Assembly (NCBI GenBank): GCA_001001185.1
Contig: LCKC01000003.1
Location: forward strand, 1 to 32,000
Length of the DNA: 32,000 nucleotides
Reading direction: 5' to 3'
Source of the DNA: Parcubacteria group bacterium GW2011_GWB1_45_10
GTDB taxonomy: Bacteria; Patescibacteriota; Minisyncoccia; UBA6257; Brennerbacteraceae
Under the pieces are notes generated by a model. It did not search any database. It saw only the letters and a program-made list of their open reading frames with translations, and was not told the DNA's origin. Shown one piece after another: positions 447 through 25,953 of the stretch. The position numbers and the translations under genes are program-made. The stretch's first letter is position 1. Every line of letters begins with the position of its first letter.

Positions 447-2843
447 ATGCCGATAAACAATTTTCTTACGAGAACGGTTAAAATGCTTTTGTTCTTGTTC
501 GCTTTGACACCGCTCGTTGTTTCCGATTCTTTTTATCTTTTCCCGTTTGTCCTGCCGAAAGTGATATTTCTCCGTTCCGTCATCGGCTTGGCTTTGATTT
601 TATTCCTCGCCGATGTTTTGGCGGGTTTTTTCAAGACCCGAACTTTCCCGTCATTTCGTTTTTGGAAAAACCCGATCTTTATTTTCGTCTGCCTTTTCTT
701 AATATCCGCGGCTTTGAGTTCAATTTTTGCGCCCAATGCTTACCGTGCTTTCTTCGGCAATGCCGAGCGCAGCGAAGGACTCTACGGCATCCTCCATTAT
801 TTTGTTTTTATGATTCTCTCGCTTTTGATTTTCAGAAAGAAGGACTGGTTTACATTTTTTAAAATTCTTCTTGTCGTCGGTTTTATTTCTTCTTTTTACG
901 CTTGGCTTCAGTATTTGCGTATTGATAAATTCCCGCTGGCGTTTCCCGCCGAAGCCCAGCCCGGCTCGTTCCACGGCAATCCGGCTTTTTTGGCAAGCTA
1001 TCTTATTCTTCTTTTTGCGCCCGCCGCTTTCATTTTCTTAAACTCTAAAGAAGGCAGTTTTTGGCGCTATGCTTCGGTTTTCGTTTCGGTTTTCGCCTTT
1101 GCCACCGTCTTCATCACGGCCATCCGGGGCGCGATTTTGGGCCTTGCCGCCGGCCTTACGGTTCTTTTGATAATTTTGGCTTTCAGCTCAAAATTAAAAG
1201 TCAGGAAACTTTTTTTCGTAAATATAAGCGTCATTTTGCTCCTCGTTCTTATTGCTTTCGGATTTACTTTTTGGACGACGAAGGATTCGCCTTTCTGGCT
1301 CAAAATCCCCGGCCTTAATCGCTTAACCTCTCTTTCGTTTGAAAATCCGTCGGTTGTGACGCGTCTGGTGGGCCTTAAAATCAGCTGGGACGCTTTCAAG
1401 GAGAAACCGATTCTGGGTTGGGGGATGGAAAATTACGGCATCGCTTACAACAAGCACTTCGACCCGAGCTACTCTTTTTATGCAGAAGACTGGTTTGACC
1501 GGGCGCACAACCGGGTGGCCGACATTGCCGTGATGCAGGGACTGTTCGGATTTCTCGCTTATTTTGGGCTTTTGGGCAGCGTGTTCTATTTATTCTTCAA
1601 AGAATGGAAGAAAAAAAACGAGGGAGAGATTTCCCGGGCGGCGCCGGTTTTGGCCGCCGTCTTTGCGGCGTATTTCGTGAACAATTTTTTCCTTTTCGAC
1701 CAAATCACTTCTTACATCCCGCTTTTTGGAATTCTGGGATTTTTGATTGCCGAATCAAATATAGGGAGGTCCGACCTCCCAAATATTGATGGCAACGTCA
1801 GGAGGTCGGACCTCCGGGGAATTGGGCAGAAAATTAATCCCTACCTCTTTGCCCTGCCGGCTCTGGTTTTAACGGGCGGCGTACTCTGGGCACTCTATTT
1901 CTGGAATTACTTGCCGGTTTATCAAGTCATTACCCTCCGTGATGCCGTGAGGAGTCGTGTCGGCCAAAATATTTTGGCCGCCTCCGATAAATTTCTCACG
2001 CCCTACAACTACATCCAGATGGAGATAAGAAAGCAGTTTTTGGAAATTATTTACAACAGCAAGCTCATTACCAATGAGAAATTCAAGCCGCTTGCTGACA
2101 AAGCCCTCCAGGCCATGGAGGAATTCACGGACAAAGAACCGTTTGACCCGAGGCACTTCAGTTCCCTTATTGAATCCTACAACGAAAGAGCCAAAGAAGA
2201 CCCAAGTTTGTTTACCAAGACGGAAGTTTTCGCAAGGAAAGCGGTTGCTCTCTCGCCTAACCGCCAGGGCCTTCTTTATCATCTCGCCTTCACTTTAGCC
2301 GGTGAAGAGCGGTTTGACGAAGCGATTGAACTCTCAAGAGAAACACTTGCGCTTGACCCCCGCATCGCCAAAGCCCATTACGAACTTGCGATTAACTTAG
2401 CGCTTGCAGCCGACTCCGAAAAATATAAAGGCACGCCGAAACAAATGGAATACCGCACGGAAGCCCTCAAAGAACTTGACGAGGCATTAGATTTGGGCAG
2501 CCGCCGTTTGGGTTCCTTGGAGCCCTACAGCGGTTCGGATATCACCAACACCCAGTACTATCTTTTCTTGGAGAGCGACCTAAAGAATATGGTTATTTTG
2601 TATCGCAGTCTGGGTTTGCCAGACCGGATGGCTAAGGTTTTGGAAATTTTGATTGTTTCCCATCCGGAAAACAAGGATTACCGCTACGACGCGATGGTTG
2701 TTTACCGTGCCCTGCGCGATAAGGATAAAATAATAGAACACGCCGAGGCCTTAAAGAAACTAGACCCGGCGCTTGCCTCGGATATGGATACCATTATTGA
2801 TTTAGCGGAAAAAGGAGAGTGGGAGATTTTGGACTCATTCTAA
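447..2843 (+). CDS. O-antigen ligase/polymerase-like (Wzy_C family) polytopic membrane protein fused to a C-terminal membrane-anchored TPR-like domain
   Basis: 798-aa ORF. The N-terminal ~440 aa are strongly hydrophobic and multi-TM, with a WGMENYG...DRAHN segment. The C-terminal ~300 aa are helical-repeat (TPR-like; ALSPNRQGLLYHLAF, ALDPRIAKAHYELA). It is a clear paralog of 27603-28910 plus 28903-29502. Confidence 0.8.
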   Translation: MPINNFLTRTVKMLLFLFALTPLVVSDSFYLFPFVLPKVIFLRSVIGLALILFLADVLAGFFKTRTFPSFRFWKNPIFIFVCLFLISAALSSIFAPNAYRAFFGNAERSEGLYGILHYFVFMILSLLIFRKKDWFTFFKILLVVGFISSFYAWLQYLRIDKFPLAFPAEAQPGSFHGNPAFLASYLILLFAPAAFIFLNSKEGSFWRYASVFVSVFAFATVFITAIRGAILGLAAGLTVLLIILAFSSKLKVRKLFFVNISVILLLVLIAFGFTFWTTKDSPFWLKIPGLNRLTSLSFENPSVVTRLVGLKISWDAFKEKPILGWGMENYGIAYNKHFDPSYSFYAEDWFDRAHNRVADIAVMQGLFGFLAYFGLLGSVFYLFFKEWKKKNEGEISRAAPVLAAVFAAYFVNNFFLFDQITSYIPLFGILGFLIAESNIGRSDLPNIDGNVRRSDLRGIGQKINPYLFALPALVLTGGVLWALYFWNYLPVYQVITLRDAVRSRVGQNILAASDKFLTPYNYIQMEIRKQFLEIIYNSKLITNEKFKPLADKALQAMEEFTDKEPFDPRHFSSLIESYNERAKEDPSLFTKTEVFARKAVALSPNRQGLLYHLAFTLAGEERFDEAIELSRETLALDPRIAKAHYELAINLALAADSEKYKGTPKQMEYRTEALKELDEALDLGSRRLGSLEPYSGSDITNTQYYLFLESDLKNMVILYRSLGLPDRMAKVLEILIVSHPENKDYRYDAMVVYRALRDKDKIIEHAEALKKLDPALASDMDTIIDLAEKGEWEILDSF
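1764..1815. repeat. Pair of palindromic units (GGAGGTCCGACCTCC and GGAGGTCGGACCTCC) read in frame inside the Wzy_C-TPR gene
   Basis: Unit 1 is 1765-1779 (extendable to 1764-1780). Unit 2 is 1801-1815 and is the exact reverse complement of unit 1. Both are translated as RSDL in the linker GRSDLPNIDGNVRRSDLRG. Confidence 0.85.
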
Positions 2844-2852
2844 ACGGTAGAA

Positions 2853-4700
2853 CTAAACGATAAAATTGTCCAACGCCTTAACGGCCGCTTGCGGGCTATT
2901 CCGCAATTCCTTTGAAAGGGTTTCCAAACCGCTTTTTACGAGATTCGCGTCTTTCGATTTTTCGTTTTTGGTGATGAAGATTTTATCCCACTGGGTGCGG
3001 CCTACCTGTTTTTCGTCATCGGAGAAGATTTCTTCAAATATTTTCTCGCCCGGCCGGATGCCGGTGAAAACTATCGGCACGTCCAAGTCGGGCGTGAAAC
3101 CCGCCAAACGAATCATTTCCTTGGCGACGTCGGCGATTTTCACAGGTTTGCCCATATCCAGCATGAATATTTCGCCGCCACTGCCGACTGCCCCAGCTTC
3201 CATTACGAGAAGCGTTGCTTCCGGTATGGTCATAAAGTAGCGAGTCATCTCCGGGTGAGTAACCGTAACCGGCGAGCGAGATTTGATTTGCTCCTTGAAG
3301 AGGGGAACAACCGACCCGCGTGAGCCGATGACGTTGCCGAAGCGAACCGAAACGAATTTGGTTTTGTTTTCGCTGTTTAATCCCTGGACGATGACCTCCG
3401 CCACCCGTTTGGTTTTACCCATGACCGATACCGGTCGGATTGCCTTGTCGGTTGAGATGAGCACAAATTTCGGCACGCCCGCCTCCATCGCCGCCTCTGC
3501 TACGTTCAAGGTGCCGAAAACGTTCGTTTGAACAGCTTCTTCCGGGTATTCCTCCATCAAAGGCACGTGCTTGTAGGCCGCGGCGTGGAAAATCACGTCC
3601 GGTTTCCAATTCTTTACCAGAGAGAATATTTTACTGCGGTCGGAAATGTTGGCGATGACTGGCTGAAGCATTTCCACGGGGTAGGAGCGGATGAGTTCCA
3701 TATGAAGGTCATAGACGCCGCTTTCATTGAAATCAAGAAGAATTAATTTTTTCGGCTGAAAACCAGCGACTTGTCTTGCGATTTCCGAGCCGATGGAGCC
3801 AGCGGCACCCGTCACAAGTACTATTTTGTCTTTTACGAATTCCGCAATTTTCTCTGTTTCCAATTTTGCCGGATTCCGGCCTAAAAGGTCTTCAATCTCT
3901 ATTTCTCGGACGTCGGCCAAGCTCACCCGGCCGGATAAAAGTTCGTGGGTTTCAGGAATGATTTTAATGTCTTTAATGCCGGCTTCCCGTGCTGTTTTGG
4001 TGGCGTTTTTTATAACATCGGCTTCGGCCGAGGCGAGAGCGATGATAACGTGTTCAACGTTATTATCTTTAACAATTTTAGGCAGGTTTAGAACGGTACC
4101 CAGAACGCGAATGCCGTGGAGGGTAACCCCTTGTTTTTCCGGTCGATGGTCAACGATGCCGATGGGGAATATTTGCGCTTTATCGGATTTCAAAAGGACG
4201 CGGATTAACTGCTCGCCTTCGGGGCCCGCACCCACGATAAGAGCCCGCGGCGCATCGGAGACCGGACCTTTCTTTACGATTTCGTGCCAAACCCTCTTAG
4301 CAATTCTTATTGCGCCCAAAAATATGAGGTTCAGGAAATATGTTATGAAAATAACGGAGCGGGGGAAACCGGCAAAAAAAGCGGTATTTTCGCGGGCGAT
4401 GAAGACGATTATCGCAAAGACGGCATTGGCGTAGGTAACGGAGAGAAATAATTTATTTAACTCCCGCAAGCTTACAAATTCCCAACTAAAAGAATAAAGA
4501 CGGTTTGAGGAAAGTGCCGCGATGTTCAAGGCGGCAAGAATCAGGAAGTAATACAAAAACCGGCCCTGGTATTCCAAGGGCAGCGTTCCGTCAAAGCGGA
4601 GCAGGAAAGCAAGCCAAAGACCCAAAGCGATGAGTGCGATGTCGGCTAAGCCGAAAACTATCGCTTTCCGCCCGCGCAAATATTGATAAATATTCGCCAC
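2853..4700 (-). CDS. pglF: Membrane-anchored nucleotide-sugar 4,6-dehydratase of the PglF/CapD/WbpM family (polysaccharide biosynthesis protein)
   Basis: 615 aa with a GTG start. N-terminal TM helices, Rossmann motif VLVTGAAGSIGSE and an AAAYKHVP (YxxxK) motif typical of CapD-like enzymes. Confidence 0.85.
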   Translation of the reverse strand: MANIYQYLRGRKAIVFGLADIALIALGLWLAFLLRFDGTLPLEYQGRFLYYFLILAALNIAALSSNRLYSFSWEFVSLRELNKLFLSVTYANAVFAIIVFIARENTAFFAGFPRSVIFITYFLNLIFLGAIRIAKRVWHEIVKKGPVSDAPRALIVGAGPEGEQLIRVLLKSDKAQIFPIGIVDHRPEKQGVTLHGIRVLGTVLNLPKIVKDNNVEHVIIALASAEADVIKNATKTAREAGIKDIKIIPETHELLSGRVSLADVREIEIEDLLGRNPAKLETEKIAEFVKDKIVLVTGAAGSIGSEIARQVAGFQPKKLILLDFNESGVYDLHMELIRSYPVEMLQPVIANISDRSKIFSLVKNWKPDVIFHAAAYKHVPLMEEYPEEAVQTNVFGTLNVAEAAMEAGVPKFVLISTDKAIRPVSVMGKTKRVAEVIVQGLNSENKTKFVSVRFGNVIGSRGSVVPLFKEQIKSRSPVTVTHPEMTRYFMTIPEATLLVMEAGAVGSGGEIFMLDMGKPVKIADVAKEMIRLAGFTPDLDVPIVFTGIRPGEKIFEEIFSDDEKQVGRTQWDKIFITKNEKSKDANLVKSGLETLSKELRNSPQAAVKALDNFIV

Positions 4701-4713: not shown

Positions 4714-4764
4714 CGGTATAACTAAATCGAGATTTGGTCAAATTTCCGAGAGAGGTTTTTAGCA

Positions 4765-4788
4765 GGTGGTATACTTAAGTATACCACC
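4765..4788. promoter_or_regulatory. Perfect 24-bp palindrome GGTGGTATACTTAAGTATACCACC in the degT-pglF intergenic gap (operator or U-tract-less hairpin)
   Basis: Checked base by base: the first half GGTGGTATACTT is the reverse complement of the second half AAGTATACCACC. Confidence 0.6.
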
Positions 4789-4839
4789 CGGATTTTATAT
4801 GACGGCACCAGAGATTTAGAGATTGTTTTCCAGTACTTT

Positions 4840-5994
4840 TTATTTGTAAAAATTTTTGATTGTTTCTATAACGTAGTCCACTTGCTCGTTGGTGAGTTCG
4901 GGGTACATCGGGAGCGATATCACGTCTTTGCAGATTTCTTCCGTTACGGGAAGCGAGGTGGCGTTCAAATTACCAAAACGCCACAATTTGCCCTTAGTTT
5001 CTTTCATCACCGGCTCTTCGTAGTTAGGCGTGGCATATTGAACAAGCGTTTCCGCTGATTGGTTATCGTCCAAATATTTTTTCAGTTCGTCGCGGCGTTC
5101 CACGAGAATAACGTAATTGTTGTAGATGTCACTTCGACGGTCATCATCGAAATGAGGGAGTTGTTTTACACCTTTCACGTTTTCCAATCCCTTCCGGTAC
5201 ATTTCGGCAATTTCTTTGCGTCTCCGGAGCCATTCTGGAAAATATTTCATTTTAACTAAAAGGAAAGCCGCCTTGATGTTGTCCAAGAGAAAATTATGGG
5301 CGTGGTAGTAAAAGTGCCGGTCTTCGCGGTCTTCGCCGTTGTAGCGCATCAGGCGCAGTTTTCTCGCCACTTCTGCATCGTCGGTCACGGCGATGCCGGC
5401 CGTGCCGGGGCCGCCCAAGGCCTTCGCCCAATACAAACTGAAACAGCCGACCAACCCGAAAGTGCCGGCTTTCTTTACGGTACCGTCCGCCATTTTCATC
5501 GTGGCGCCAAGCGCTTGGGCCGCATCCTCAATTACAATAAGCCCCTTTCTCTTGGCGATTTCCATTACCGCTTCCATATCGCATAACCGGCCGTTGAAAT
5601 GAACTGGCATAATCGCTTTCGTTTGCGGTGATATCGCCTCCTCAATTTTACTTGCATCCATATTAAAATCGCGGCCGACATCAACGAGCACTGCTTTGGC
5701 GCCTGTCATGCAGATGGTGGAGATACTAGCAATAAACGTGTGGGCGACGGTTATCACTTCATCGCCGGGACCCACACCTGCCGCTTGGAGAGCGATATCC
5801 AGAGCCGAAGTGCCGGAATTCGTAGCGATGCCGTATCTTGCCTCGCAGAGTTCAGCGAATTTTTCTTCAAAAACGGCGAGGTCTTTGGGCGTGACGAGTG
5901 CCCCGCGCTTTAAAACTTCATCCATCGCGCCCAAAAGCTCGTCGCGATGGTCGGCGTACTGTTTCTGCGGATTTACGAATCGTACTTTGTACAT
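4840..5994 (-). CDS. DegT/DnrJ/EryC1/StrS-family PLP-dependent nucleotide-sugar aminotransferase
   Basis: 384 aa with family-typical N-terminus and length, ATNSGTSALDIAL, VITVAHTFIAS, and an FSLYWAK lysine region. Confidence 0.85.
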   Translation of the reverse strand: MYKVRFVNPQKQYADHRDELLGAMDEVLKRGALVTPKDLAVFEEKFAELCEARYGIATNSGTSALDIALQAAGVGPGDEVITVAHTFIASISTICMTGAKAVLVDVGRDFNMDASKIEEAISPQTKAIMPVHFNGRLCDMEAVMEIAKRKGLIVIEDAAQALGATMKMADGTVKKAGTFGLVGCFSLYWAKALGGPGTAGIAVTDDAEVARKLRLMRYNGEDREDRHFYYHAHNFLLDNIKAAFLLVKMKYFPEWLRRRKEIAEMYRKGLENVKGVKQLPHFDDDRRSDIYNNYVILVERRDELKKYLDDNQSAETLVQYATPNYEEPVMKETKGKLWRFGNLNATSLPVTEEICKDVISLPMYPELTNEQVDYVIETIKNFYK

Positions 5995-19669: not shown

Positions 19670-19748
19670 ATTACTCTAAAATATCTGATCTTCCAAATCT
19701 TTGAAATTGATGCTAAATTATAAATAATAACTGAATACGCCTAACCCT

Positions 19749-19754
19749 TATAGT
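19749..19754 (+). promoter_or_regulatory. -10-like box TATAGT, 6 nt upstream of the uORF ATG at 19761
   Basis: TATAGT TTTTCT ATG, preceded by an A/T-rich tract. The -35 is weak. The spacing matches the other leaderless-type promoters in the window. Confidence 0.3.
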
Positions 19755-19760
19755 TTTTCT

Positions 19761-19820
19761 ATGAGATATGGCAACAAAACCCACTACAGGACAGACAGCT
19801 CGTCATCAGAGCACCTGTAG
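19761..19820 (+). CDS. Candidate 19-codon leader peptide (MRYGNKTHYRTDSSSSEHL)
   Basis: ATG at 19761 to TAG at 19818-19820. It reads through the 5' repeat copy and stops inside the inverted copy, and contains four consecutive Ser codons. Purely predicted. Confidence 0.3.
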   Translation: MRYGNKTHYRTDSSSSEHL

Positions 19821-19924
19821 TGGGTCATATCCCGAAAGGGGTATGGGTAGTCGAAAGATTATCGCTGGTGGCGGGCTTTGTGTTTATCTGCCGCCAGAAG
19901 CATAAATAAAAACCCACTACAGGC
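19776..19924 (+). promoter_or_regulatory. Structured cis-regulatory leader RNA (unclassified riboswitch or attenuator-like) upstream of the methyltransferase block
   Basis: 15-nt perfect direct repeat (19776-19790 and 19909-19923) plus its 12-nt exact inverted copy (19814-19825). Three contiguous hairpins follow, two with GAAA loops. G-U pairs occur only on the + strand. Confidence 0.6.
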
Positions 19925-24211: not shown

Positions 24212-24869
24212 CTTCAACGATGCCGCCGTGTTTGCTCCACTCGCCGGGCCAGACATCTTCGGTGAATTTAGTGAGGGTGACTTTCGCCGCGGGCGCGATT
24301 TCTTTGAATAAGGTTTCATAATTGTAGGCCCAGTGGCCCAAATACTCCCAATCTTTCACCGAATTCCATTCAACGAGAATCACCGCATACTTCGCGATTC
24401 TCGCGAGTTCTCTTAATACCCCCTTAATCTTGTTTTTGCCGACGTAAATCAAGACCGCATCCGTAAAGACGACGTCAAAACTTTTGTCAGGAATGTTTTT
24501 CAGATTAAGAACGTTGCCTACCCGGAGTTCAACGTTCTTTATCTTCTGGAGTTCGAGGTATTTTTTGCCGGTTTGAATGGCCGAACCGCTTAGGTCGATG
24601 CCGGAAAACTTCGCTTGCGGCAGTTTTCGGGAGAGCAGGATGAGGTTCGGCCCAGAAGCGCAGCCGATTTCAAGCGCGTTTTGCGGATTGTATTTCGATA
24701 TTTTTTCGACGAGCAGCGACCGGTGGGGATGGGCGAGCGATTGTTTGGAAACGTAATTTTCCGGCCACCGCCGGTCGATGAAATGCCGGAAGCGCCAGAA
24801 CAATAGGTCGCTGGTCGTGCCCAGAACTTTATTTGATATTCTTTTAGCTATTTTTAATAACGTTCTCAT
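24201..24869 (-). CDS. Class I SAM-dependent methyltransferase
   Basis: ALEIGCASGPN motif I and DVVFTDAVLIYV. The ORF-track start at 24920 is a TTG. I prefer the ATG at 24869, which still overlaps the GT4 gene by 26 nt. Confidence 0.7.
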   Translation of the reverse strand: MRTLLKIAKRISNKVLGTTSDLLFWRFRHFIDRRWPENYVSKQSLAHPHRSLLVEKISKYNPQNALEIGCASGPNLILLSRKLPQAKFSGIDLSGSAIQTGKKYLELQKIKNVELRVGNVLNLKNIPDKSFDVVFTDAVLIYVGKNKIKGVLRELARIAKYAVILVEWNSVKDWEYLGHWAYNYETLFKEIAPAAKVTLTKFTEDVWPGEWSKHGGIVEVKF

Positions 24870-25953
24870 ACAATTTTTCAACCTTAGCCATTTCCACGTA
24901 ATAGTTATTTTTTTCTTCAATAATTTGTCGGTTGCGGGCGCCTTGCGATTTCCTCAAACTCTCGTTATTTATGAGAGCTATTATTTTTTCGGCGAGCACC
25001 TCCGGGGATTTTATGGGAATCACAAACTCATTATCCACCCACTCTTTGTTGTCGCCCGAGTCAGTGACGATGACTGGCAGACCCGTCGCCATCGCTTCGG
25101 CCGTTGAAGAGGAGAGACCACTGTCGGAGAGAGCGGTGGAAACGTAAATATCGGCTTCTTGAAGATGGCGCGGTAACTCTTCGTTATTAATTTTACCCAA
25201 AAATTTAACAGAACTTTCAATATTGAGTTCTTTAGCCAGGTTTTCGAGTTTTTCTTTTTCCGGCCCGCCGCCCGCGAGCAGAAATTCAGCATTGGGGGCG
25301 GATTTTAGGACAATAGCCGCCGCCTTTATTAATGTTTCAATGTCGTAAATCGGTACTAAGCTACGCAACGAAATAACTTTCAATGTTTTGGAGGTTGAAC
25401 CTCCTAAAGGAGGTTCAACCTCCTTATGTTGGACTGGTCGAAATTTCTCCACGTCGGTGCCGAAGCGGATAAGATGAATTTTTTCTCGGTCGGCTCCCAA
25501 ACCAATGAGTTTTTGGAACGTATTTTCGCCGTCGCAGGTGTAGGTGTCGGCCCGGTCAACGATGAACATGACTGAGAATTTTCTGATTAATCCGCCAAGA
25601 AGGATGTCTGAGCCCCAGGGAGTGAGGACCGCCGGATGAAAATTCGCGAGGGCGGCGGCGAGGCCGTAAGTGCCGGCTGAGTGGACGTGTAAAAGGTCCG
25701 GCCGCTCAGCCCGCAAAATCCCCTTGATTTGTTTTACCGCTTGCGGCAAATAACGGATGGCAAATCGGCCGTTGATATCGGCAAGAGGCGAGGGCGTTAT
25801 CTCGTAAAATTTTACTTTTTTAACCAAATTCTCCGCTTCTGGAATGGACGGCGCAAAAGAAATCCAGATGATTTCGTGGCCGCGGCTCACGAAAAATTTT
25901 ATCCAGCGGACGCTGTGGATGGAATTGGCACCGGCAAGGTAGGCTATTTTCAT
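24844..25953 (-). CDS. Family 4 (GT-B fold) glycosyltransferase
   Basis: 369 aa with a two-Rossmann layout and EX7E-type C-terminal motif (STAEAMATGLPVIVTDSGDNKEWV). Confidence 0.85.
   Translation of the reverse strand: MKIAYLAGANSIHSVRWIKFFVSRGHEIIWISFAPSIPEAENLVKKVKFYEITPSPLADINGRFAIRYLPQAVKQIKGILRAERPDLLHVHSAGTYGLAAALANFHPAVLTPWGSDILLGGLIRKFSVMFIVDRADTYTCDGENTFQKLIGLGADREKIHLIRFGTDVEKFRPVQHKEVEPPLGGSTSKTLKVISLRSLVPIYDIETLIKAAAIVLKSAPNAEFLLAGGGPEKEKLENLAKELNIESSVKFLGKINNEELPRHLQEADIYVSTALSDSGLSSSTAEAMATGLPVIVTDSGDNKEWVDNEFVIPIKSPEVLAEKIIALINNESLRKSQGARNRQIIEEKNNYYVEMAKVEKLYENVIKNS
25390..25423. repeat. Perfect 15-bp inverted repeat GGAGGTTGAACCTCC-TAAA-GGAGGTTCAACCTCC read in frame inside the GT4 gene
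   Basis: Unit 2 (25409-25423) is the exact reverse complement of unit 1 (25390-25404). On the minus strand it encodes ...KEVEPPLGGSTSK... in the inter-domain linker. Confidence 0.85.

Follow-up and report, generated by a model that had tools for sequence, protein, structure and literature searches.

The window analysed here, 32,000 nt of contig LCKC01000003.1 from Parcubacteria group bacterium GW2011_GWB1_45_10, is part of a 64,999-nt groundwater scaffold and is over its whole length a surface-glycan biosynthesis cluster, with glycosyltransferases of families GT2 and GT4, methyltransferases, sugar-nucleotide enzymes, a flippase and two Wzy_C proteins. Inside its GT4 gene lies a perfect 34-nt hairpin, read directly from the sequence at 25390–25423 as GGAGGTTGAACCTCC-TAAA-GGAGGTTCAACCTCC, and a second doubled palindrome, here called the sister element, lies inside a Wzy_C gene. 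Both belong to a dispersed family of palindromes that stands beside transposase-like genes in other genomes, and the hairpin is probably a mobile palindromic doublet that is tolerated in a surface loop. The features concerned are as follows.

24844–25953, minus strand: host gene of the hairpin, a GT4 (GT-B fold) glycosyltransferase of 369 amino acids (aa), assigned from Pfam, homologs and an AlphaFold model.
25387–25425, minus strand: codons of aa 177–189, KEVEPPLGGSTSK, the translated element, a predicted disordered interdomain loop between the Pfam domains.
25390–25404, unstranded: unit 1, GGAGGTTGAACCTCC, that is GGAGGT-TGA-ACCTCC, with a 6-bp stem and a 3-nt centre, self-complementary as 7+1+7.
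25405–25408, unstranded: spacer or loop TAAA, whose outer T and A lengthen the arms to 16 nt and leave a 2-nt loop.
25409–25423, unstranded: unit 2, GGAGGTTCAACCTCC, that is GGAGGT-TCA-ACCTCC, the exact reverse complement of unit 1.
447–2843, plus strand: gene that harbours the sister element, assigned by domain search to a Wzy_C (O-antigen-ligase-like) membrane protein whose C terminus has a TPR region.
1765–1815, unstranded: sister element, GGAGGTCCGACCTCC, a 21-nt spacer (CAAATATTGATGGCAACGTCA) and then GGAGGTCGGACCTCC, with the in-frame reading GRSDLPNIDGNVRRSDL.

The initial annotation, made from the sequence alone, had claimed a perfect 15-bp inverted repeat with a 4-nt loop and self-complementary units at 25390–25423, and coordinates and geometry are exactly as it gave them. 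Each 15-mer unit is itself a 7+1+7 palindrome, and an inverted-repeat search, in which the outer spacer bases join the arms, returns 16-nt arms, a 2-nt loop and 100% complementarity. The RNA fold of a 94-nt region around the element has a free energy of −36.3 kcal/mol (z = −6.5 against shuffles). Its minus-strand translation, ...HKEVEPPLGGSTSKT..., falls in the open reading frame (ORF) 24844–25953, and the peptide predicted from read-through of 25390–25423 is EVEPPLGGSTSK. Two perfect inverted repeats whose arms reach 15 nt or more and whose loop does not exceed 30 nt are present in the window, compared with 0.003 per simulated window (300 first-order Markov windows), and matches to GGAGGTNNNACCTCC within it comprise only the four units of the two doublets, even when two mismatches are allowed. 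No Rfam family matched the hairpin or the sister element at the gathering threshold, no tandem simple-sequence tract was found at the hairpin site in the window, and no T-run follows the hairpin at 25390–25423. With 34 nt the element is shorter than the ~70–300 bp of miniature inverted-repeat transposable elements. A DNA uptake sequence, a parS-like site and a terminator were set aside on account of the low copy density and of variants that differ between genomes, and all three are also disfavoured by the in-frame position of copies within genes and the missing T-run. The pentamer ATGTT is present on both flanks, as had been noted; its interpretation as a target-site duplication is unproven because the repeat is only partly kept in orthologs. 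Copies of the family within one genome have neither a common flank nor a common duplication.

In the host protein, the insert sits between the Pfam domains Glyco_transf_4 (to aa 169) and Glycos_transf_1 (from aa 188). The AlphaFold model, built with 40 homologs, has a mean predicted local distance difference test score (pLDDT) of 91.8, its sole segment below 50 being aa 178–187, the insert, and it matches GT4/GT-B structures, MshA and BshA among them, with TM-scores of ~0.83. Because the gap between the Pfam domains and the low-pLDDT segment coincide with the insert, its earlier placement, in frame in the linker between the two Rossmann domains, is correct, and the structural check that had been proposed for a surface loop finds in the insert the only low-confidence loop of a confident model. 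The element is accordingly modelled as a translated, disordered loop of ~12 residues between two Rossmann-like domains, and the insert probably has little effect on the GT4 enzyme and would be functionally neutral. The closest GT4 homologs come from metagenome-assembled genomes (MAGs) of Paceibacterota/Patescibacteria.

The sister element is positioned in the linker after the Wzy_C domain of its own host. It has the arms GGAGGT/ACCTCC of the element at 25390–25423, while the centres are CCG/CGG instead of TGA/TCA, in agreement with the annotation. Two doublets are known in 41.5 kb of the contig, their arms common and their centres different.

To place these two doublets, 185,579 GTDB species-representative genomes were scanned with the pattern GGAGGTNNNACCTCC-N(0–30)-GGAGGTNNNACCTCC, which covers GGAGGT/ACCTCC arms only. 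At least 119 stretches matched, against ~0.1 expected by chance (our own estimate, from 24 fixed bases). The centres of 91 of the 126 matches listed form a reverse-complementary pair, where chance would give 1/64, and 68 of these 91 inverted doublets are in MAGs labelled as members of the candidate phyla radiation (CPR; Saccharibacteria, Moranbacteria, Nealson-, Wolfe-, Kaiser-, Harrison-, Jorgensen-, Lloyd-, Giovannoni-, Uhr-, Yonath- and Yanofskybacteria, and Paceibacterota), with 12 unlabelled and 6 from Elusimicrobia. Direct-repeat matches (cyanobacteria, Actinomycetota, Saprospiraceae and Clostridiales) were rejected as unrelated tandem arrays. Some genomes hold at least 3–5 copies among the matches listed, of one and the same variant (five in Moraniibacteriota JBBQCF01, four in Saccharibacteria CAZYSH01 and four in Elusimicrobia UBA11697), and the similarity between copies of one genome ends at the arms or a few bases past them. 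Spacers are mostly 2–5 nt long, or ~19–22 nt with a common AATATTGA-like core as in the sister element; sister-type spacers with this type of core are also present in other CPR loci. The unit stem is 6–7 bp here and 9–14 bp in some other genomes, and the arm variants GGAAGT, GGACTT, GGACGT, GGTAAT and GGACAT were seen incidentally, for example in the flanks of fetched loci. Among further stretches from other genomes, which were retrieved by repeat pattern or as GT4 orthologs and carry L numbers in what follows, L004 has a sister-like element with a homologous loop in its GT4 gene, at a different position. The initial annotation had thought it unlikely to be a coincidence that two glycan genes of one island carry doubled palindromes of the same type; it is none, both being members of this one family, with the sister-like relative in L004. 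In 2.9 million viral contigs the same pattern found one locus, a tandem repeat and not an inverted doublet, and a phage origin of the family was discarded given the near-absence of the pattern there. Elusimicrobia MAGs hold one doublet in several copies, of the form GGAGGTTCAACCTCC-NNN-GGAGGTTGAACCTCC (L026, L036, L113 and L121 of UBA11697; L063, L087 and L124 of GWC2_61_19; L086), and the family is therefore either not strictly confined to CPR or has been transferred.

Among the matches listed, stop-free frames of at least 450 nt contain 63% of the inverted doublets, compared with 82% for random positions in the same loci, and ~37% lie outside long ORFs. The doublets occur in all phases and in both orientations and are read as peptides that include EVEPP..GGSTS, RRSDL..., RRFNL... 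and GGSTS..EVEPP. Their hosts, named by NCBIfam, include IleRS, LeuRS, IF-2, the CCA-adding enzyme and TsaD; LigA carries doublets in three genomes at three positions. In GuaA (GMP synthase), the doublets of two CPR genomes share one place in the protein, directly behind the SGGSDSS P-loop helix, with centres and spacers that differ:

L116, 6177–6213: centres CAG/CTG, 7-nt spacer.
L089, 3246–3277: centres TAA/TTA, 2-nt spacer.

L105 has a doublet with a short spacer in a Wzy_C+TPR protein, at the counterpart of the sister element's linker.

The host ORF of the doublet in L039 matches the Pfam family Y1_Tnp (IS200-like transposase) with 34.4 bits against a cutoff of 23, and tblastn with this protein found nine more homologs in eight further loci retrieved by the pattern, for a total of ten genes in nine loci. 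All five of the proteins tested have as their best NCBIfam match NF047646, the repetitive extragenic palindromic (REP)-associated tyrosine transposase (RAYT), with E values from 6e-7 to 1.5e-18; the NCBIfam IS200 model scores far worse on these proteins than the RAYT model. The PNHxH (HUH) motif and Y..N are invariant in all ten RAYT-like proteins, whose catalytic motifs are intact in sequence. A palindromic unit lies within 25 nt of at least one end of nine of the ten genes, several having units at both ends and inside, and two loci (L039 and L095) carry exactly GGAGGTTGAACCTCC, the unit of the window, beside the RAYT-like gene. The arrangements are:

L095, gene 3066–3701: ACTTGGAGGTTGAACCTCCAAGT 14 nt upstream, one unit within the gene and another across the stop codon.
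L039, gene 1999–2685: a doublet within the gene, with TGGAGGTTGAACCTCCA following 23 nt downstream.
L013, L019, L079 and L109: the adjacent unit is the genome's own variant.
L025, 999–1781 (L025a), and L064, 6816–7588: flanked on both sides, at 2–20 nt, by palindromes unrelated to GGAGGT, namely TTGCTTAACTNAGTTAAGCAA and GTTAGACACTCGGTGT...ACACCGAGTGTCTAAC.
L039:1999–2685, L095:3066–3701, L013:3–551, L109:3760–4503 and L025:4292–4888: genes with their own unit in frame.

The different palindromes around L025a and L064 suggest several transposase/unit pairs, in which each enzyme has its own cognate unit; L025 has two RAYT-like paralogs with different units. In the genes that carry their own unit in frame, its position is constant, a short way upstream of the HUH motif, and it encodes GG(S/T/L/P)(T/A)S; such a unit could be a self-regulatory site or merely a tolerated insertion. 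The wider RAYT-like family has at least 7510 members (E ≤ 1e-10), those with names being a 'transposase' in CPR MAGs or a 'REP element-mobilizing transposase RayT' in JGI entries. Most of the RAYT-like proteins come from very short contigs (0.8–5 kb), which fits assemblies that break at repeat-flanked genes. No transposase was found in the window by Pfam on 30 ORFs, and tblastn with the L039 protein gave no hit there or across ~0.33 Mb of GT4-ortholog loci. The link to a RAYT-like enzyme was beyond what the annotation could see in the window.

The equivalent linker was compared across GT4 orthologs on the coding-strand DNA, with nucleotide identity taken between each gene and that of the window:

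Window (reference): GGAGGTTGAACCTCC-TTTA-GGAGGTTCAACCTCC.
L001 (66%): arms 30/30 identical to the window, loop TCAA.
L002 and L003 (73% for L002): GGAAGTTGAACTTCC-TCAA-GGAAGTTCAACTTCC, with four coordinated changes that keep the pairing within and between units.
L128, L129 and L130 (73% for L128): perfect GGACTTCGCAAGTCC-TTAT-GGACTTGCGAAGTCC.
L006 (72%): GGACTT form that has a single mismatch.
L005 (76%): GGACTT version with two sense-strand G-U pairs and one mismatch.
L007 (70%): first unit decayed, second intact.
L153 (67%): first unit decayed, loop TCAA, second unit deleted; the deletion is in frame.
L154 (72%; gene L154:283–1383): an unrelated perfect 20-nt palindrome, GGCGCTTAGC|GCTAAGCGCC.
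L152 (73%), L131, L132, L133, L135 and L136: 7-nt tandem repeats at the site.
L004 (72%): nothing comparable at the site.

In the comparison that the annotation had proposed, the site holds a perfect hairpin whose arms have changed in compensating ways, a decayed or deleted copy, or no hairpin. The orthologs with an EVEPP..GGSTS-like segment also retain the nucleotide palindrome, with compensating changes, and the counter-example named as a refutation did not turn up. The arms at the site are GGAGGT, GGAAGT or GGACTT versions and retain their pairing, while the loops drift (TTTA in the window; TCAA, TTAT, ATAT and GCGT in orthologs); the stems are conserved or covary. Across seven sequences, 95% of cells pair in the long hairpin, and both sides have changed in 7 of its 15 pairs; the alternative of two short hairpins gives 96% paired cells and both-side changes in 4 of 12 pairs. 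L001 and L153 form an outgroup clade, and therefore the GGAGGT-TGA form with loop TCAA is probably ancestral. The insertion at this site is old, being common to orthologs at 66% nucleotide identity, and the hairpin is dispensable, because many orthologs lack it or have a decayed copy.

We consider it probable that the 34-nt hairpin is a REP doublet, similar to the REP doublets forming hairpins known as REPINs, that was mobilised by a RAYT-like enzyme and is tolerated in a surface loop. The reasons are the palindromic unit, its arrangement as an inverted doublet, the genome-specific variants and the units that flank a RAYT-type gene. Most likely, to judge from this comparative analysis, the units are moved by a RAYT-like enzyme, and the genome of the window would have a gene for one. 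Such an enzyme would recognise the unit as a single-stranded DNA hairpin and would cut and paste it, or copy it, to new sites; surviving copies would be in-frame, stop-free landings in permissive surface loops. At the GT4 site, some lineages have kept the arms paired or replaced them, and in others they have decayed or been lost by deletion; the doublet at 25390–25423 would be retained because it lies within a disordered linker. Several observations weigh against this assignment. The RAYT-like proteins score 29.5–67 bits against the curated NCBIfam cutoff of 80, and their profile matches in the PDB are weak (ISDra2 TnpA, E = 1e-3; E. coli TnpA-REP, 4er8, E = 9e-3). The classical REP tags are lacking: of 286 units, 7 have GTAG and 9 have CGTC within 8 nt, and their flanks show no more than a T-rich 5′ side and an A-rich 3′ side. 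Loci bearing a RAYT-like gene had been selected by the repeat pattern, though not by the transposase, and no RAYT-like gene is present in the window together with 9.5 kb upstream (41.5 kb of contig). No closely related empty site was found, so that mobility is inferred, and the 30/30 identity of the arms exceeds what would be expected of a neutral relic, a hint at selection, hairpin-templated correction or re-insertion.

Of the competing explanations, a chance palindrome or an assembly fold-back chimera has a negligible probability. Fold-back artefacts are able to create perfect palindromes, and nothing else speaks for this origin. It is opposed by the two hairpins observed where simulation gives 0.003, by the insert-bearing GT4 protein, which is recorded on 10 contigs from several sources and is identical on all 10, by the sister element, whose host protein is recorded on 13 contigs and which is identical in the four independent assemblies that could be read, and by hairpins at the orthologous GT4 site in independent samples (L001; L002 and L003; L128, L129 and L130). 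The artefact of chimeric or fold-back reads that the annotation had itself raised is refuted because independent assemblies carry the elements. An apparent presence/absence polymorphism of the sister element was also discarded, the 786-aa cluster mate being the 798-aa host protein read from a later start codon. A local origin, in which the linker is an unstable, hypervariable segment that tolerates repeats and creates them by slippage or template switching, the palindrome having formed on the spot, is improbable. As a mutational switch, the site might shift frame by loss of one unit with the spacer (19 nt). Phase variation is common in glycan genes, the class to which the host belongs; 7-nt tandem repeats occupy the site in L131, L132, L133, L135/L136 and L152, an unrelated 20-nt palindrome does so in L154, and a deletion in L153 took out unit 2. 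Because of these heptamer repeats and the other palindrome, a hypervariable-linker component still has to be reckoned with. However, the exact 15-nt unit in more than 100 unrelated loci and beside RAYT-like genes is inexplicable by local generation, there is no tandem simple-sequence tract in the window, the deletion in L153 preserves the frame, and no population heterogeneity was seen, the protein being identical on its 10 contigs. The heptamers themselves are present in 3–4 copies (ACTACAA in L131, AACTACC in L132, GCAAAGA in L133, CCAAGAT in L135/L136 and CAACCTA in L152), and the gain or loss of a single copy would shift the frame, which could make them a phase-variable switch in a CPR surface-glycan gene. 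The GT4 genes that bear them are:

L131: 10001–11098.
L132: 154–1275.
L133: 2838–3968.
L135: 934–2097.
L136: 3–1073.
L152: 1246–2340.

It is unlikely, though less so than a local origin, that the hairpin is selected for host benefit as a cis-acting RNA or DNA element, with its family resemblance secondary or a product of domestication; it might act in ribosome pausing between the domains, in mRNA stability or RNase III processing, or as a protein-binding site. The position exactly at a domain boundary is in keeping with such a role, as are the arms of the window and L001, which are 30/30 identical while the genes are 66% identical and two of four loop bases differ, the compensatory changes in 7 of 15 pairs, the nature of the imperfections in L005 (two sense-strand G-U pairs and one mismatch) and the different doublets at one position in GuaA (L116 and L089) and in the Wzy_C linker (the window and L105). 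From the identity of the arms over so divergent a gene it follows that a selected hairpin, or hairpin-templated correction, stays in contention. Yet the same units are scattered over unrelated genes, in each of the three phases and in either orientation, with ~37% of those listed outside long ORFs; the hairpin has decayed in L007 and L005, is half-deleted in L153 and is missing in many orthologs, among them L152, L154 and L004, which at 72–73% nucleotide identity are as close as carriers. Hairpin-templated correction or re-insertion could, moreover, keep the arms perfect without selection, and the covariation comes from only seven sequences with 3–4 independent arm types, and no Rfam family matches. 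A combination of this role with the REP-doublet reading appears quite unlikely as well: the CPR doublets may be more than selfish passengers and form a domesticated REPIN–RAYT system within coding sequence. Its hairpins would have persisted over long periods at orthologous in-frame positions (the GT4 linker, GuaA and the Wzy_C linker) because they serve the host, their stems conserved or covarying and their loops free. Structure-specific sites at domain boundaries could then affect translation or folding, or sites could affect replication or repair, and the copy inside the transposase gene could be a feedback element.

The REP-doublet reading gains in precision by comparison with known systems. 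The CPR doublets resemble REP/REPIN sequences in the short stem-loop palindrome, in the inverted doublet that folds into one longer hairpin, apparently, to judge from other genomes among the matches listed, in the several copies of a genome-specific variant, and in the units that flank, in related genomes, an HUH/Y1 transposase gene whose best model match is RAYT. In contrast to them, they have no GTAG/CGTC tag, a 15-nt core and spacers often of 2–5 nt, and whereas REPs are extragenic, both copies in the window are in frame and most CPR copies listed are within ORFs. The CPR enzymes differ from known RAYTs in falling below the curated cutoff, in being longer (~220 aa) and in often having their own unit in frame. 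REP sequences and RAYTs were reportedly also studied by Nunvar (2010) and Ton-Hoang (2012). Rickettsia palindromic elements (RPEs), said to have been reported by Ogata et al. in 2000, are similar in their in-frame insertion into functional, often essential genes, where they add a surface peptide, and in their occurrence in intergenic regions as well; they are set apart by length and host, RPE-1 measuring ~100–150 bp and being found in Rickettsia only, unlike the CPR element of 34–51 nt. RPEs are not known to have a dedicated transposase, and their short relatives are CGTC-tagged. With IS200/IS605 elements and palindrome-associated transposable elements (PATEs), the CPR system has in common a transposase of the Y1_Tnp superfamily, and DNA hairpins are recognised at the ends of IS200/IS605; the CPR unit, by contrast, is a bare hairpin or doublet with neither distinct left and right ends nor coding capacity. 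Unlike a simple-sequence contingency locus, the site in the window has no tandem tract. Organelle hairpin elements, namely double-hairpin elements, GC clusters and the coding palindromes of Nematomorpha mitochondria (PMC6649704), are likewise short hairpin repeats or perfect inverted repeats within translated coding sequence, but are unrelated in sequence, have no transposase and are mostly much longer or GC-rich. REP/REPIN sequences with RAYTs are established in E. coli and Pseudomonas (Bertels & Rainey 2011, PMC3116915; PMC3337134; Di Nocera 2013, PMC3733652). Intragenic REP dimers that encode extra residues have been described in Opitutus terrae and Rickettsia conorii, and RPEs since 2000 (PMC3733652), so the principle of intragenic REPs is not new. 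A full-text search of a limited literature collection, unit sequences included, turned up neither palindromic in-frame elements nor RAYT/REPIN for CPR, and no paper in it contains one of the unit sequences. What differs here is the CPR hosts, the very short untagged unit, the mostly in-frame intragenic copies, essential genes included, and a divergent RAYT clade whose members often have their own unit in frame.

Other structures were observed alongside. A LOOT RNA (RF03000; 84.4 bits against a gathering threshold of 46.4) at 19738–19863 on the plus strand is the sole Rfam match in the window; it is located in the gap between a radical-SAM and a TylF-like methyltransferase gene and includes an inverted repeat at 19779–19825. 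An intergenic perfect palindrome, CAGGTGGTATACTT|AAGTATACCACCCG, lies at 4763–4790 between the ORFs 2853–4700 and 4840–5994, and a second one, the hairpin CGAAAGAGCCCC-ttttc-GGGGCTCTTTCG, at 385–413 immediately upstream of the Wzy_C gene; both are unrelated to the GGAGGT family. Small genes of the 23S_rRNA_IVP family (PF05635) adjoin the GT4 ortholog at L002:9111–9311, L003:1644–1844 and L004:9615–9896, and are not in the window. At L108:1146–1265, at a contig end, a 120-nt perfect palindrome with 60-nt arms and no loop is centred on a GGAGGTCGCACCTCC doublet; it is either a long-armed element or an assembly fold-back. The saccharibacterial genome CAZYSH01 has further families of perfect palindromes, 60–92 nt long and with little or no loop, for example ...TTCAAGGTACGGCCTCAAAATTACTACCCTTTG|CAAAGGG..., at the following places:

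L013: 6888–6979 and 4544–4606.
L058: 6140–6213 and 438–502.
L110: 464–529 and 6465–6536.

CPR/Patescibacteria have very small, streamlined genomes, yet REP-type hairpins and RAYT-like transposases (at least 7510 proteins) appear to be widespread in them, with most of the copies in frame in proteins, essential ones among them (tRNA synthetases, DNA ligase, GMP synthase and IF-2). If the REP-doublet reading is true, REPIN/RAYT biology would extend to a large uncultured part of the bacterial tree, and the family would account for a share of the lineage-specific peptide insertions in CPR proteins. It also points to one source of broken assemblies and odd annotations in CPR MAGs. Whether such an element is a parasite or a long-term resident finds a natural test at the GT4 site, where the arms are identical at 30 of 30 positions while the gene around them has diverged to 66%.

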